Below are positions 5,288 to 64,000 of a stretch of 64,000 nt of DNA, one piece after another. Position numbers and translations under genes: made by a program. Under the pieces are notes generated by a model that did not search any database, was not told where the DNA came from, and worked only from the letters and a program-made list of their open reading frames with translations. Source of the DNA: Escherichia coli. Its GTDB lineage: Bacteria > Pseudomonadota > Gammaproteobacteria > Enterobacterales > Enterobacteriaceae. Positions within the stretch are counted from its first letter, which is position 1, and the number at the start of each line of letters is the position of its first letter. Location of the stretch: the NCBI RefSeq assembly GCF_013122565.1, contig NZ_CP053258.1, one strand, 5' to 3'.

Positions 5288-7201
5288 TTACTTATGACCT
5301 GCCAGCAGTTCCAGCACTTCATCCACGCTGGTGGTGTGTGCCAGACGCTCGATGACGGACTCATCATCCAGTGCATTGGTCAGGCTGGTGATAACCTGAA
5401 TGTGCTCGTTGTTGCGGGCAGCAATACCAATCACCAGACGGGCAATGTCATCTTCTTCTTCACCGAAGCGCACGCCTTCCGGGTACTGGCAGAACACGAC
5501 GCCCGTTTTCAGTACGCGATCTTTCGCTTCAACCGTACCGTGTGGCACCGCGATAGACTCACCCAGATAAGTCGGGGTCAGTTTTTCACGATCCAACATC
5601 GCCTGAACGTATTCCGGCTCAACGTAACCGCCTTTCACCAGCTGCTCGCCAGCAAAACGAATCGCTTCTTCTTTGGTTGCCGCTTTGCGACCGAGGAAGA
5701 TGTTCTCCGCGCCCAGTTTGAATAGGTTAGCACTGGAATCGTCAAAGCTGTCTTTCAGACTGTCTTTCACTTTCACTTCGTTTTCAGTATGGCGCTGGGC
5801 AGCAACCAGACGTTCGGTCAGGCTGGTGTACAGGCCACTGTCGAGGAAGTTGGTCAGCGAAATATGCTGCGCCTGCGGAACCTGGCGCATAGCGCGTTCG
5901 GTCAGGTCACGGTGAGTGATGACGAGGTCCACATCTGGCGGCAGGTTGTTGATCGCGCTGTTAGTGACCGAAATCTGCGACAGACCTGCATCCTGAATTT
6001 TCTTACGCAGCACGCCTGCGCCCATCGCACTTGAACCCATACCGGCGTCACAGGCAACGATGATTTTACGTACGTGGCTCAGGTCGTTAGTCACATCACC
6101 CGCAGACAGCGGAGATGCGCCTTTAGACTCAGCTTTCATGTCCTGCATACGACGAGTTGCTGCTTCAATATCATCTTCTTCTTTCACTTTGCTGGTTTTC
6201 AGCAAAATAGCAGAGACAACGAAGGAGACAGCCATCGCCGCACACACACCCGCGATGTTAGCGAAATAAGCACCTTTTGGTGTCATCGCCAGTACCGCAA
6301 GGATAGAACCCGGAGATGCCGGAGAAACCAGACCACCGCCCAGGATAGTCAGCGTGAACACGCCAGTCATACCGCCGAGGATAACGGCCAGGATCAGACG
6401 CGGATTCATCAGCACATACGGGAAGTAGATTTCGTGGATACCACCCAGGAAGTGGATGATTGCCGCACCACCCGCAGACTGTTTAGCACTACCACGACCA
6501 AAGAACATGTACGCCAGCAGCACGCCCATACCTGGACCTGGGTTAGCTTCAATCAGGAAGAAGATGGATTTACCCAGTTCATGGGACTGCTGAATACCCA
6601 GCGGCGAGAAGATACCGTGGTTAATGGCGTTGTTGAGGAACAGGATTTTCGCCGGTTCAACAAAGATAGATGCCAGCGGCAGCATGTCATGGACAACCAT
6701 GAAGTTAACGCCCGCAGCCAGCATTTTGGACAGGGCTTCAACAATCGGGCCAATGCCGAGGAATGCCAGAATGGCGAGGATCATCCCGATGATGCCTGCG
6801 GAGAAGTTATTCACCAGCATCTCAAAACCGGATTTGATCTTACCGTCTACCCAGCGGTCGAAGTGCTTAATGCACCAGCCGCCCAGCGGACCTGCAATCA
6901 TAGAGCCGAGGAACATCGGCATGTCTGCGCCGACGATAACGCCCATGGTGGTGATGGCACCGACTACGCCGCCACGTTCGCCGCCTACCAGCTTACCACC
7001 GGTATAACCGATCAGCAGCGGCAGGAGGTAAGTGATCATCGGTCCGACTAGCTTCGCCAGCGTCTCGTTCGGTAACCACCCTGTTGGAATAAATAATGCG
7101 GTGATGATACCCCACGCGATAAACGCGCCGATATTTGGCATCACCATGTTGCTGAGGAAACGACCAAAGCTTTGCACTTTGATCTTAATATCGGATGACA
7201 T
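5288..7201 (-). CDS. mtlA: PTS mannitol-specific EIICBA component
   Basis: 637-aa [40 protein letters not shown]...; recognised as MtlA. Confidence 0.95.
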
Positions 7202-7737: not shown

Positions 7738-8100
7738 ATGTTTCTAAACTATTTCGCGTTAGGAGTGCTGATCTTCGTCTTTCTGGTGATTTTTTATGGA
7801 ATCATCGCGATACATGACATCCCTTATCTGATTGCCAAAAAGCGCAACCATCCCCATGCCGACGCTATTCATACGGCGGGCTGGGTGAGCCTGTTTACTC
7901 TGCATGTTATCTGGCCGTTTCTGTGGATTTGGGCGACGCTCTATCAACCGGAGCGCGGGTGGGGCATGCAGTCACATGTTGCGTCGCAGGAGAAAGCGAC
8001 TGACCCGGAAATCGCCGCACTTTCTGACCGAATTTCCCGGCTGGAGCACCAACTCGCCGCCGAGAAAAAGACTGACTATTCCACGTTCCCGGAGATCTAA
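7738..8100 (+). CDS. yibI: DUF3302 small inner-membrane protein YibI
   Basis: 120-aa [48 protein letters not shown]...; stop is 2 nt before the yibH start. Confidence 0.85.
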
Positions 8101-8102
8101 TT

Positions 8103-9239
8103 ATGGATCTATTGATTGTTTTAACTTACGTGGCGCTGGCGTGGGCGGTCTTTAAAATCTTCCGCATTCCAGTAAATCAGTGGACGCTGGCGACGGCGGC
8201 GCTGGGAGGCGTGTTTCTGGTGAGTGGTTTGATTTTGTTGATGAACTACAACCACCCTTACACTTTTACCGCGCAAAAGGCTGTGATAGCGATCCCCATC
8301 ACGCCACAGGTGACGGGAATTGTTACTGAAGTCACTGACAAGAATAATCAGCTTATTCAAAAGGGCGAGGTACTTTTTAAGCTCGACCCGGTTCGTTACC
8401 AGGCGCGAGTTGACAGACTTCAGGCTGACCTGATGACGGCGACGCATAATATAAAGACGCTGCGCGCCCAGCTCACTGAAGCGCAGGCCAACACCACCCA
8501 GGTTTCAGCGGAGCGCGACCGTCTGTTTAAAAATTATCAACGTTATCTGAAAGGCAGCCAGGCGGCGGTGAATCCGTTCTCGGAACGTGACATCGACGAT
8601 GCGCGGCAAAATTTCCTCGCGCAGGATGCGCTGGTGAAAGGCTCGGTGGCGGAGCAGGCGCAGATCCAGAGCCAGCTCGACAGTATGGTTAACGGCGAGC
8701 AATCGCAGATTGTGAGCTTAAGAGCGCAACTTACTGAAGCAAAATATAATCTTGAGCAGACTGTCATTCGCGCGCCGAGCAATGGCTACGTTACTCAGGT
8801 ACTGATCCGCCCAGGCACATACGCAGCTGCCTTGCCGCTGCGTCCGGTGATGGTCTTCATCCCCGAGCAAAAACGGCAAATTGTCGCCCAATTTCGGCAA
8901 AACTCGCTGTTACGTCTGAAACCCGGCGATGATGCGGAAGTGGTGTTTAACGCGCTACCTGGGCAGGTGTTTCACGGCAAACTGACCAGTATTTTACCTG
9001 TCGTGCCAGGCGGTTCTTATCAGGCGCAGGGGGTATTGCAATCATTAACGGTCGTGCCCGGCACGGACGGTGTGCTGGGAACCATTGAACTGGACCCTAA
9101 CGATGATATCGATGCCTTACCCGACGGCATCTACGCCCAGGTGGCAGTTTACTCCGACCATTTCAGCCATGTTTCGGTGATGCGTAAGGTGCTGCTAAGA
9201 ATGACCAGTTGGATGCATTATCTTTATTTGGATCATTGA
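8103..9239 (+). CDS. yibH: HlyD-family membrane-fusion-like protein YibH
   Basis: 378-aa ORF; N-terminal TM segment, central coiled coil, C-terminal beta domain; paralog of the ORF at 16271..17407. Confidence 0.85.
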
Positions 9240-9309
9240 GACTTATATCACCTGTGTTTTGCGTGAGCCTGAGCCATACTGATATTTTTCCTCGCACAAA
9301 GGACTCGGC

Positions 9310-9918
9310 ATGAAACTCGTCGGTAGCTACACCAGCCCGTTTGTACGCAAACTTTCTATTCTGTTGTTAGAAAAGGGCATAACTTTCGAATTTATTAATG
9401 AACTGCCCTATAACGCGGACAACGGCGTGGCGCAATTTAACCCGTTAGGAAAAGTGCCGGTGCTGGTGACCGAAGAGGGCGAATGCTGGTTTGATTCGCC
9501 GATCATCGCTGAATATATTGAGTTAATGAATGTCGCTCCGGCGATGTTGCCGCGCGATCCGCTGGAGTCGTTGCGGGTGCGCAAAATTGAGGCGCTGGCG
9601 GATGGCATCATGGATGCCGGGCTGGTATCGGTGCGTGAACAGGCGCGTCCGGCGGCGCAGCAGTCTGAAGATGAATTGTTACGTCAGCGTGAGAAAATCA
9701 ACCGTAGCCTTGATGTGCTGGAAGGATATCTGGTCGATGGCACACTCAAAACCGATACGGTCAATCTGGCGACTATCGCCATTGCCTGTGCCGTTGGATA
9801 TCTCAATTTCCGCCGCGTTGCGCCAGGCTGGTGTGTCGACCGCCCACACTTAATCAAACTGGTCGAAAACCTGTTTAGCCGCGAAAGTTTTGCTCGCACC
9901 GAACCGCCAAAGGCTTGA
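9310..9918 (+). CDS. yibF: Glutathione S-transferase family protein YibF
   Basis: 202-aa [31 protein letters not shown]... (GST N-terminal thioredoxin-like fold). Confidence 0.85.
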
Positions 9919-10015
9919 TGCGCGATATGTCCTCCTGACCCATCTCACGTTACAATCCGTGGTTATGTTAAACGCCCTTCTCCGTGTGAGAGGGCCTTGA
10001 TCAGCCAGGTTTCCT

Positions 10016-11407
10016 ATGACAACCGAAACGCGTTCCCTCTATAGTCAACTTCCGGCTATTGATCGCTTATTGCGCGATAGCTCCTTCCTTTCTTTGCGTG
10101 ATACTTATGGTCACACCCGCGTAGTGGAATTGCTGCGTCAGATGCTTGACGAAGCGCGAGAAGTGATTCGTGACAGCCAGACGCTGCCTGCGTGGTGTGA
10201 AAACTGGGCGCAAGAAGTCGATGCCCGGTTGACGAAAGAGGCGCAGAGCGCGCTGCGTCCGGTGATCAACCTGACGGGAACCGTGCTGCATACCAACCTT
10301 GGTCGAGCTTTACAGGCGGAAGCCGCGGTGGAAGCCGTTGCGCAGGCTATGCGTTCGCCAGTGACCCTCGAGTACGATCTGGACGACGCCGGACGCGGAC
10401 ATCGCGATCGGGCGCTGGCGCAGTTGCTGTGCCGCATTACGGGGGCGGAAGATGCCTGTATCGTTAATAACAATGCGGCGGCGGTGTTATTGATGTTGGC
10501 GGCCACTGCCAGCGGGAAAGAGGTGGTGGTATCTCGCGGCGAACTGGTGGAGATTGGCGGCGCGTTTCGTATTCCCGATGTTATGCGTCAGGCAGGCTGC
10601 ACCCTACACGAAGTAGGGACCACCAACCGCACGCACGCGAATGATTATCGTCAGGCGGTGAATGAAAATACCGCGCTGTTGATGAAAGTACATACCAGTA
10701 ACTACAGCATTCAGGGGTTCACCAAAGCGATAGACGAAGCGGAACTGGTGGCGCTCGGCAAAGAACTGGATATTCCCGTAGTGACTGATTTAGGCAGTGG
10801 CTCGCTGGTCGATCTTAGCCAGTACGGTTTGCCGAAAGAGCCAATGCCGCAGGAGTTGATTGCGGCGGGCGTCAGTCTGGTGAGCTTCTCCGGCGACAAG
10901 CTGTTAGGCGGGCCGCAGGCAGGAATTATTGTTGGTAAAAAAGAGATGATCGCCCGCCTGCAAAGCCACCCGCTGAAGCGTGCATTACGCGCGGATAAAA
11001 TGACCCTTGCGGCGCTGGAAGCTACGTTGCGTCTTTATTTACACCCTGAAGCTCTGAGTAAAAAATTACCGACCCTGCGCCTGCTTACCCGCAGCGCAGA
11101 GGTCATTCAAATCCAGGCACAACGTTTACAGGCTCCCCTTGCCGCACATTACGGCGCGGAGTTTGCAGTCCAGGTTATGCCATGTCTTTCGCAGATTGGC
11201 AGTGGTTCGCTGCCGGTTGATCGCCTGCCGAGCGCGGCATTAACGTTTACACCCCATGATGGACGCGGTAGCCACCTTGAGTCATTAGCCGCCCGCTGGC
11301 GTGAATTGCCAGTGCCGGTGATTGGTCGTATTTATGACGGACGATTGTGGCTGGATTTACGCTGCCTTGAAGATGAGCAACGGTTTTTGGAGATGTTGTT
11401 GAAATGA
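10016..11407 (+). CDS. selA: L-seryl-tRNA(Sec) selenium transferase
   Basis: 463-aa [45 protein letters not shown]...; ATGA overlap with selB. Confidence 0.95.
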
Positions 11408-15518: not shown

Positions 15519-15941
15519 AAAGCGCACGTTGTTACAATTTACGTTTTAAACCTACGTGCGCAATAACCCAGACTACGCCAACAGAAGTGCGTTTCTGGGG
15601 CGTGTTTTGTCAGGAGTTTAATCTCGCGTTTCGATGGTGAGCGGGCGAACCAGGCCGTAAATCACCATTGGCGTTCCGAGGCCAATCAGCAATAAACGGT
15701 AGATAATTGAAGGTTTAATACGCTTAATCTGTATTGTGGATGTTTTACTGGAGTTATTCATTAGTTTGGCCAATAGTTCTATTATTTCAATATGATAAGT
15801 CTCAGTCTGTTGAAAATCCACGCAGTACACTTCAGAAAGTATATAAAAAACAATATGTCGTTATATAAATAAGGAAATTGCACTGCATCATGGCATTTCA
15901 TAATATGCGTTAATTGTTTTTTTATATTCTTTGAGGAAAAT

Positions 15942-63128: not shown

Positions 63129-63242
63129 CGTAACAATCACAATTGAAACCATTGAATAACAATAGTTATGGCGATAGTGGGTGCTAACTTACCAAATAAT
63201 AAATTTGGTGAATAATTGTCGCGTCATTCATTCCTGAACTAA

Positions 63243-63273
63243 GGCATTTCATTCCGTTCTGATGGCATTTCAT
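63243..63273 (+). promoter_or_regulatory. Tandem direct repeat GGCATTTCAT-N11-GGCATTTCAT in yhjX promoter (YpdB/LytTR-type response-regulator site)
   Basis: Exact 10-bp direct repeats at 63243..63252 and 63264..63273 separated by 11 bp, about 85 bp upstream of the yhjX ATG; matches the YpdB site described for yhjX as I recall it. Confidence 0.7.
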
Positions 63274-63356
63274 GCCGTTTTTCCCCAGGCATAAAGTGCA
63301 CTTCGTTATGGTTGTCGGCAGAGATTTTTCCTTTTTATTACTGCAGGAATACTGCC

Positions 63357-64000
63357 ATGACACCTTCAAATTATCAGCGTACCCGCTGGCTGACACTCAT
63401 CGGTACTATCATTACCCAGTTTGCGCTGGGGTCGGTTTATACCTGGAGCCTGTTTAATGGCGCGCTTTCCGCCAAGCTGGATGCGCCGGTAAGCCAGGTC
63501 GCTTTCTCTTTCGGCTTGTTAAGTCTGGGGCTGGCAATTTCATCTTCTGTTGCGGGCAAATTACAGGAGCGTTTTGGCGTTAAACGCGTCACCATGGCTT
63601 CCGGCATTTTGCTGGGATTAGGCTTCTTCCTGACCGCGCATTCTGACAACCTGATGATGCTGTGGTTAAGCGCCGGTGTACTGGTCGGTCTGGCAGATGG
63701 CGCGGGTTACCTGCTGACGCTCTCTAACTGCGTGAAGTGGTTCCCGGAGCGTAAAGGTCTGATCTCCGCGTTCGCTATCGGTTCTTATGGTCTGGGTAGC
63801 CTGGGTTTCAAATTTATCGACACGCAGCTGCTGGAAACGGTCGGTCTGGAAAAAACCTTTGTGATTTGGGGAGCGATTGCGCTGGTGATGATTGTTTTCG
63901 GCGCAACGTTAATGAAAGACGCACCAAAACAGGAAGTGAAAACCAGCAATGGTGTGGTGGAGAAAGATTACACGCTGGCAGAGTCGATGCGTAAACCGCA
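63357..64000 (+). CDS. yhjX: MFS transporter YhjX (oxalate/formate antiporter family), 5' portion; partial at window end
   Basis: Hand translation from ATG 63357: MTPSNYQRTRWLTLIGTIITQFALGSVYTWSLFNGALSAKLDAPVSQVAFSFGLLSLG...; not in ORF track because it runs off the window. Confidence 0.85.
   Translation, partial: MTPSNYQRTRWLTLIGTIITQFALGSVYTWSLFNGALSAKLDAPVSQVAFSFGLLSLGLAISSSVAGKLQERFGVKRVTMASGILLGLGFFLTAHSDNLMMLWLSAGVLVGLADGAGYLLTLSNCVKWFPERKGLISAFAIGSYGLGSLGFKFIDTQLLETVGLEKTFVIWGAIALVMIVFGATLMKDAPKQEVKTSNGVVEKDYTLAESMRKP

Follow-up and report, generated by a model that had tools for sequence, protein, structure and literature searches.

The intergenic region upstream of yhjX in the stretch of Escherichia coli DNA analysed here (64,000 nucleotides, hereafter the window) carries the published binding site of the regulator YpdB. 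On the + strand, the 10-mer GGCATTTCAT occurs twice, at 63243-63252 and at 63264-63273, and the 58 nucleotides from 63220 to 63277 match exactly the core of the "yhjX YpdB bs" oligonucleotide (Table 1, PMC4847170), a DNA that has been experimentally bound by YpdB. Because of this identity we consider the interpretation to be supported, and nothing in the sequence examined argued against reading the repeats as a YpdB operator. The interpretation is one that is already known; our direct observations are the identity to the tested DNA, the location in front of yhjX and the conservation of the site. We are highly confident in the explanation as a whole, namely that the ordered binding of phosphorylated YpdB to the two GGCATTTCAT copies leads to a pulse of yhjX transcription triggered by pyruvate.

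The two copies recur with a start-to-start period of 21 bp and are separated by an 11-bp spacer, TCCGTTCTGAT (63253-63263). They lie on the same strand as yhjX and upstream of its ATG at 63357, and 83 nt separate the second copy from the start codon. A sequence-only reading of the window had described exact tandem 10-bp repeats with an 11-bp spacer about 85 bp upstream of yhjX and had proposed that they match the motif of the YpdA/YpdB system at this gene. The coordinates agree with the first two statements, and the exact 58-nt identity to the fragment bound in surface plasmon resonance (SPR) experiments, with yhjX downstream, bears out the third. This arrangement, a GGCATTTCAT direct repeat with an 11-bp spacer, is that of the YpdB operator of the yhjX promoter, and it also fits the general geometry of LytTR sites, which consist of repeats of 9-11 nt separated by spacers of 11-13 nt (PMC4847170). 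The product of the downstream gene is 99.5% identical over 214 aa to the annotated YhjX of RefSeq E. coli, whose gene is labelled "L-lactate MFS transporter", and RefSeq E. coli genomes share the gene order bisC, yiaC, tag, yhjY, yhjX. The operator and promoter region can be divided into the following parts:

63220-63277, + strand: published YpdB-bound fragment (core of the SPR oligonucleotide).
63223-63234, + strand: R0, a degenerate third copy, GTCATTCATTCC, sharing TTCATTCC with site A and placed 21 bp upstream of it in the same phase.
63243-63255, + strand: site A, GGCATTTCAT followed by the conserved extension TCC; the published high-affinity site.
63256-63263, + strand: variable part of the spacer between the 13-nt boxes, 8 nt (0.70 bits).
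63264-63276, + strand: site B, GGCATTTCAT followed by the conserved extension GCC; the published low-affinity site.
63278-63282, + strand: T-run just after site B, recognised by its conservation.
63307-63312, + strand: putative -10 hexamer TATGGT, proposed from the conserved distance between TAnnnT and site B.
63343-63355, + strand: small hairpin GCAG-GAATA-CTGC in front of the ATG, carrying the AGGA Shine-Dalgarno sequence (RNAalifold consensus).
63357-64000, + strand: yhjX coding sequence (MFS transporter), assigned by homology to annotated yhjX and running off the end of the window.
63184-63396, - strand: mechanical antisense open reading frame of 70 aa containing NGMKC, NGMKC and GMND (ORF translation).

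The experimental description of this operator is that of Behr et al. (2016; PMC4847170), who, citing Fried et al. (2013), name the two copies of the 10-mer sites A and B and state that every nucleotide protected in the DNase I footprint is included in their SPR fragment of the yhjX promoter. Site A, the upstream one, binds with high affinity (KD of about 1.2 nM), and site B, downstream, binds with lower affinity (KD of about 21 nM), with rapid association and dissociation, and needs site A to be occupied first (PMC4847170). Transversions in site A abolish the binding of the phosphomimetic YpdB-D53E, and one binding event persists after transversions in site B (PMC4847170). LytTR regulators place one domain on each repeat, with the repeats on one face of the helix and the DNA bent (summarised in PMC4847170). 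In published work, extracellular pyruvate is the stimulus of YpdA/YpdB, and YpdB has no direct target other than yhjX. Binding, footprint, the effects of single-site mutations and induction by pyruvate have thus all been established in the literature.

Applied to the window, the mechanism would proceed as follows. Each copy of GGCATTTCAT would take one monomer of phosphorylated YpdB, and the 21-bp period, equal to two helical turns, would put both copies on the same face of the DNA. Site A (63243) would be bound first and tightly, which would allow a second monomer to occupy site B (63264) transiently and cooperatively. The bound complex would then activate a promoter devoid of a -35 box, with its probable -10 element at 63307-63312. 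According to the published model, RNA polymerase would be recruited and the promoter quickly cleared, starting at site B, so that expression would be pulsed. The outcome would be a pulse of transcription of yhjX, which encodes an MFS transporter, whenever extracellular pyruvate is sensed. No homologue of YpdA or YpdB is encoded within the 64-kb window; ypdA and ypdB are present in E. coli K-12 (positions 8078-10524 of locus L127), and we assume from K-12 that the source genome has them too.

The operator resembles several known sites. Compared with the YpdB site of the K-12 yhjX promoter, it has the same sequence, the same spacing of A and B and yhjX downstream, without any difference in the site itself, although the lineage of the surrounding window differs from K-12. 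The BtsR (YehT) site in the yjiY/btsT promoter likewise belongs to a paralogous LytTR regulator of the same pyruvate network and consists of direct repeats in front of a transporter gene, but the yjiY fragment carries CCGCTCAACCGC and similar repeats, and the two regulators share only 32% identity. The LytT boxes upstream of pftAB in Bacillus subtilis also serve a pyruvate-responsive LytS/LytTR system at the promoter of a pyruvate transporter (PMC5626966) and, by their published description, comprise two 13-nt boxes 8 nt apart, with the same 21-bp period (PMC5626966). Charbonnier et al. (2017; PMC5626966) remarked on the resemblance of the YpdB and LytT sites. The B. subtilis system differs in that its target is a transporter of the LrgAB type and not of the MFS, and in that the region is described as palindromic (PMC5626966); no B. 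subtilis locus with the exact GCATTTCAT-N12-GCATTTCAT pattern was found among the matches listed in our scan (see below). In the window, site B (63264-63276) reads GGCAT-TTC-ATGCC, a perfect 5-3-5 palindrome that site A matches at four of five positions, and this internal dyad symmetry of the 13-nt boxes may be the reason why the LytT region was called palindromic. Finally, as summarised in the literature, the AgrA sites of the Staphylococcus aureus agr P2 and P3 promoters are also formed by two direct repeats of about 9 nt, about 12 nt apart, each bound by one LytTR domain with bending of the DNA, but their sequence is unrelated and the signal is a quorum-sensing peptide.

One rival reading is that a different regulator, such as the paralogous LytTR protein BtsR or a global regulator, is the main ligand of the repeats, YpdB binding them only secondarily. 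Published work links BtsS/BtsR and YpdA/YpdB functionally, and in the uropathogenic (UPEC) strain UTI89 the induction of yhjX was reported to depend on BtsS and YpdB (PMC9765748). Even in UPEC, however, the regulator at the promoter is still YpdB and the kinase alone differs (PMC9765748). Moreover, the yjiY fragment bound by BtsR, used as a control in the SPR experiments (Table 1, PMC4847170), lacks GCATTTCAT, so that it shares no such core with the site in the window, and the distant operators described below accompany regulators that are 53-61% identical to YpdB as compared to about 30% identical to BtsR. We therefore regard a principal role of another regulator as very unlikely. The UPEC result nevertheless qualifies the attribution to YpdA/YpdB made by the sequence-only reading: its YpdB half stands for yhjX, whereas the kinase reported in UTI89 is BtsS and not YpdA (PMC9765748).

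A further possibility is a functionless repeat that arose by chance duplication in intergenic DNA. It is indeed not rare for an exact 10-mer to recur within 40 nt. The window contains six pairs of exact direct repeats of at least 10 nt with spacings of 10-40 nt, as compared to 1.8 +/- 1.3 pairs (maximum 7) in 200 dinucleotide-preserving shuffles of the window used as the chance control, and a bare pair of exact 10-mers is weak evidence by itself. The repeat extends, however, to 16 nt, GGCATTTCATTCCGTT versus GGCATTTCATGCCGTT, with 15 of 16 positions identical (GGCATTTCAT[T/G]CCGTT), and this is the sole pair of such quality in the window, 0.02 being expected per shuffled window. The site is also conserved with invariant flanks in 29 enterobacterial species and is found in other phyla beside cognate regulator genes, and binding and mutation data are already in print. 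The probability that we would assign to a functionless duplication is consequently negligible.

Several other repeats were recorded in the window. Its short-spaced exact repeats are about three times as numerous as given by the shuffles, and the five exact pairs besides that of GGCATTTCAT, with units of 10-11 nt spaced by 12-34 nt, are located at 5748, 18593, 26407, 28772 and 39650. A solitary exact copy of GGCATTTCAT is present at 15892-15901, in an intergenic position about 50 nt upstream of the start (15942) of yiaW (DUF3302), with no second copy 21 bp upstream or downstream of it. A generic repeat finder missed the GGCATTTCAT pair and gave an out-of-register family instead. An inverted repeat, I1 (63230-63242 with 63338-63350), also turned up and is regarded as chance.

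Within E. coli, the yhjX intergenic region was found in 5,422 of 5,426 complete genomes, with a median of one occurrence per genome and never on a plasmid. The 58-nt fragment 63220-63277 is 100% identical in K-12 and in 3,599 of these 5,422 genomes. A 41-mer that covers the two repeats is matched exactly in 3,608 of the 5,422 and with one mismatch in 1,812, indicating that the exact 10-mer repeat is specific to certain lineages. In the three variant genomes that were aligned (MS7163, A3 and S1-THA), the mismatch is G63243T, which changes site A to TGCATTTCAT. The genomes with one mismatch, about one third of the total, include ST131 EC958 and MS7163 (variant loci L002, L003 and L004). In an alignment of six full-length sequences, the variation between lineages is concentrated in the part upstream of 63222, and only three positions vary from 63223 to the ATG. 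Over positions 40000-64000 of the window, the best complete E. coli genome is 98.1% identical along 24 kb, and the matches include annotations of IS150-type transposases. The source would seem to be a Shigella-like or otherwise divergent Escherichia lineage, outside the complete genomes compared. In one strain, E. coli DX6, an IS1 copy is inserted inside site B, after GGCATTTC (L005, 3052-3075, corresponding to about position 63271 of the window). This insertion separates the operator from the core promoter of yhjX and, judging from its position, has probably abolished the control of yhjX by YpdB in that strain.

Conservation beyond the species was followed by scanning a single genome of each bacterial or archaeal species for the pattern GCATTTCAT-N12-GCATTTCAT, which returned at least 120 loci. 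A YhjX homologue lies directly downstream on the same strand in 33 of the 120 matches listed, about 27 of them from Enterobacteriaceae. The other 87 of the 120 matches listed have no YhjX homologue, more than estimated for an 18-base pattern, and this excess of unrelated matches is probably due to the AT-rich motif. Four loci, L066 (a "Klebsiella pneumoniae" metagenome-assembled genome), L092, L111 and L114, appear to be chance or loosely linked matches. It is to be noted that the motif served as the bait for this cross-species set, which therefore describes conservation where the motif exists and not the frequency of its loss, and that the search pattern preset the length of the spacer, so that the constant spacing is not an independent result.

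The promoter of the window and 28 other enterobacterial promoters were stacked ungapped, giving an alignment of 29 sequences. TCC after the core of site A and GCC after the core of site B, both unconstrained by the search, are invariant in all 29. The base preceding the core, on the other hand, is variable, with 20 G and 9 T at site A and 10 G and 19 T at site B. The rest of the spacer contains 0.70 bits and the far upstream flank 0.30 bits, which is near random. From the invariant extensions and the variable first base we conclude that conservation applies to a box of 13 nt, K-GCATTTCAT-(T/G)CC, present twice with eight variable bases in between. The 10-mer proposed by the sequence-only reading is thus real and published, but the 13-nt box is the better description of what is conserved.

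Outside the two boxes, the stretch 63222-63234 containing R0 averages 1.66 bits in the same 29 promoters, as compared to 0.30-0.48 bits in its flanks; it lies outside the search pattern and was therefore not selected by the scan. R0 also falls within the published footprint fragment (63220-63277). The Paenibacillus operators described below have no R0, and the 3' end of the regulator gene occupies its position. Taken together, these alignments make R0 a candidate for an additional YpdB binding site, and a contribution to regulation is possible. Immediately downstream of site B, positions 63277-63283 average 1.38 bits, with TTTT conserved in at least 90% of the 29 sequences.

A consensus promoter scan detected no -35/-10 pair at 63307-63312 and gave only a lone, unrelated weak match at 63189-63216. 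Nevertheless, the window and each of the 28 further enterobacterial promoters have TAnnnT 41-42 nt past the first base of GCATTTCAT in site B. This distance recurs in five Paenibacillus species (TATAAT or TATACT), in Chromobacterium (TATAGT), in Romboutsia (TAAGAT) and in a Spirochaeta genome (TATAAT). We infer that TATGGT at 63307-63312 is the -10 element, in which case transcription would start near 63318-63320 and the leader would measure about 38 nt. The lack of a recognisable -35 sequence beside TATGGT is what would be expected if the promoter depends on an activator. The distance between site B and the -10 element is the most rigid feature across lineages, and this rigidity fits a direct contact between the monomer bound at site B and the polymerase. 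CATAAA at 63290-63295 was considered as an alternative -10 element and rejected, as it is not conserved outside Escherichia. In the leader, an RNAalifold consensus obtained from 28 enterobacterial leader sequences contains the hairpin at 63343-63355. CsrA sites usually present a GGA in the loop of a hairpin. A longer stem of the 5' untranslated region, GGCAG/CTGCC, appears in the single-sequence fold only, and the fold of the alignment keeps just the hairpin of the ribosome binding site.

On the opposite strand, the antisense frame has a GTG start and 70 aa, with NGMKC appearing twice, seven residues apart, exactly over both copies of the repeat, and GMND across the degenerate third copy. The sequence-only reading had called this frame spurious and had explained its GMK repeat by the DNA repeats; the translation agrees with this explanation, and the epithet is reasonable since the frame is not conserved in other genera. 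The converse view, that the repeats exist because the frame encodes a real small protein with NGMKC repeats, can draw on the 70 open codons and on the two NGMKC translations, but it has next to no likelihood given that the frame is not annotated in the RefSeq genomes, that it overlaps the start codon and promoter of yhjX, and that the stops in the frame shift widely between genera (the open stretch measuring 2-45 codons on one side and 11-135 on the other in 27 genomes) while the DNA repeats stay in place. Moving stops together with fixed DNA boxes are the pattern of a DNA signal and not of a protein.

A comparative study has described the YpdB motif in several gamma-proteobacteria, and the likeness of the YpdB site to the LytT site of B. 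subtilis is the sole remark across phyla that we found in the literature. In our scan, several distant genomes carry the operator directly past the stop codon of an operon encoding a LytS-type kinase and a LytTR regulator, with the same 21-bp period. The genes that follow the operator are of different types:

Five Paenibacillus species (L026, L028, L032, L078 and L116): an MFS protein 43-45% identical to YhjX.
Chromobacterium subtsugae (L110): a YhjX-like gene, cut by the end of the locus.
Romboutsia weinsteinii (L067): a CstA-like gene, judged by eye from the N-terminus, the locus being cut.
Spirochaeta genome (L051): a gene for a 588-aa protein, CstA-like by eye.
Two Limosilactobacillus species (L020 and L087): a gene for a 134-aa membrane protein, read as LrgA-like.

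In Clostridium arbusti (L017, 5298-5327), the operator also follows a ypdA/ypdB orthologue pair, but no gene lies downstream on the same strand and the next ORFs are convergent; this operator is either orphaned or its target was not recognised. In Paenibacillus, Chromobacterium, C. arbusti and Romboutsia, the regulator shares 53-61% identity with E. coli YpdB versus 29-32% with BtsR, and the kinase shares 52-63% with YpdA. This high identity indicates that the pairs in question are YpdA/YpdB orthologues despite distances at the level of phyla. The Limosilactobacillus sites display the full GGCATTTCAT-N11-GGCATTTCAT sequence, and the Limosilactobacillus and Spirochaeta regulators show about 35% identity to YpdB and to BtsR alike.

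These comparisons suggest a broader proposal, in which the enterobacterial promoter would carry three in-phase boxes, R0 aiding the loading of YpdB or the bending of the DNA, and in which the operator, with the same -10 distance, would be older or more mobile than the gamma-proteobacterial survey suggests. Its second part draws on the operators beside ypdAB orthologues and more distant LytS/LytTR pairs of Firmicutes, a spirochaete and a beta-proteobacterium. We consider the odds of this proposal to be evenly balanced. The occurrence of the operator across phyla is an extension of known facts and not a new kind of system.

The site carries little weight as a discovery, since its regulator, stimulus and binding kinetics are already in print, but it shows that a real, experimentally defined operator can be recovered from raw sequence by a first-pass reading. 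The comparisons describe the operator more sharply, as 13-nt boxes whose first base varies, with a third in-phase box and a fixed -10 distance. If the broader proposal is true, one recognition code would have been retained while the output gene was swapped, between the unrelated transporter-like classes MFS, CstA-like and apparently LrgA-like. An operator that travels with its two-component system could help to predict the targets of uncharacterised LytS/LytTR systems.
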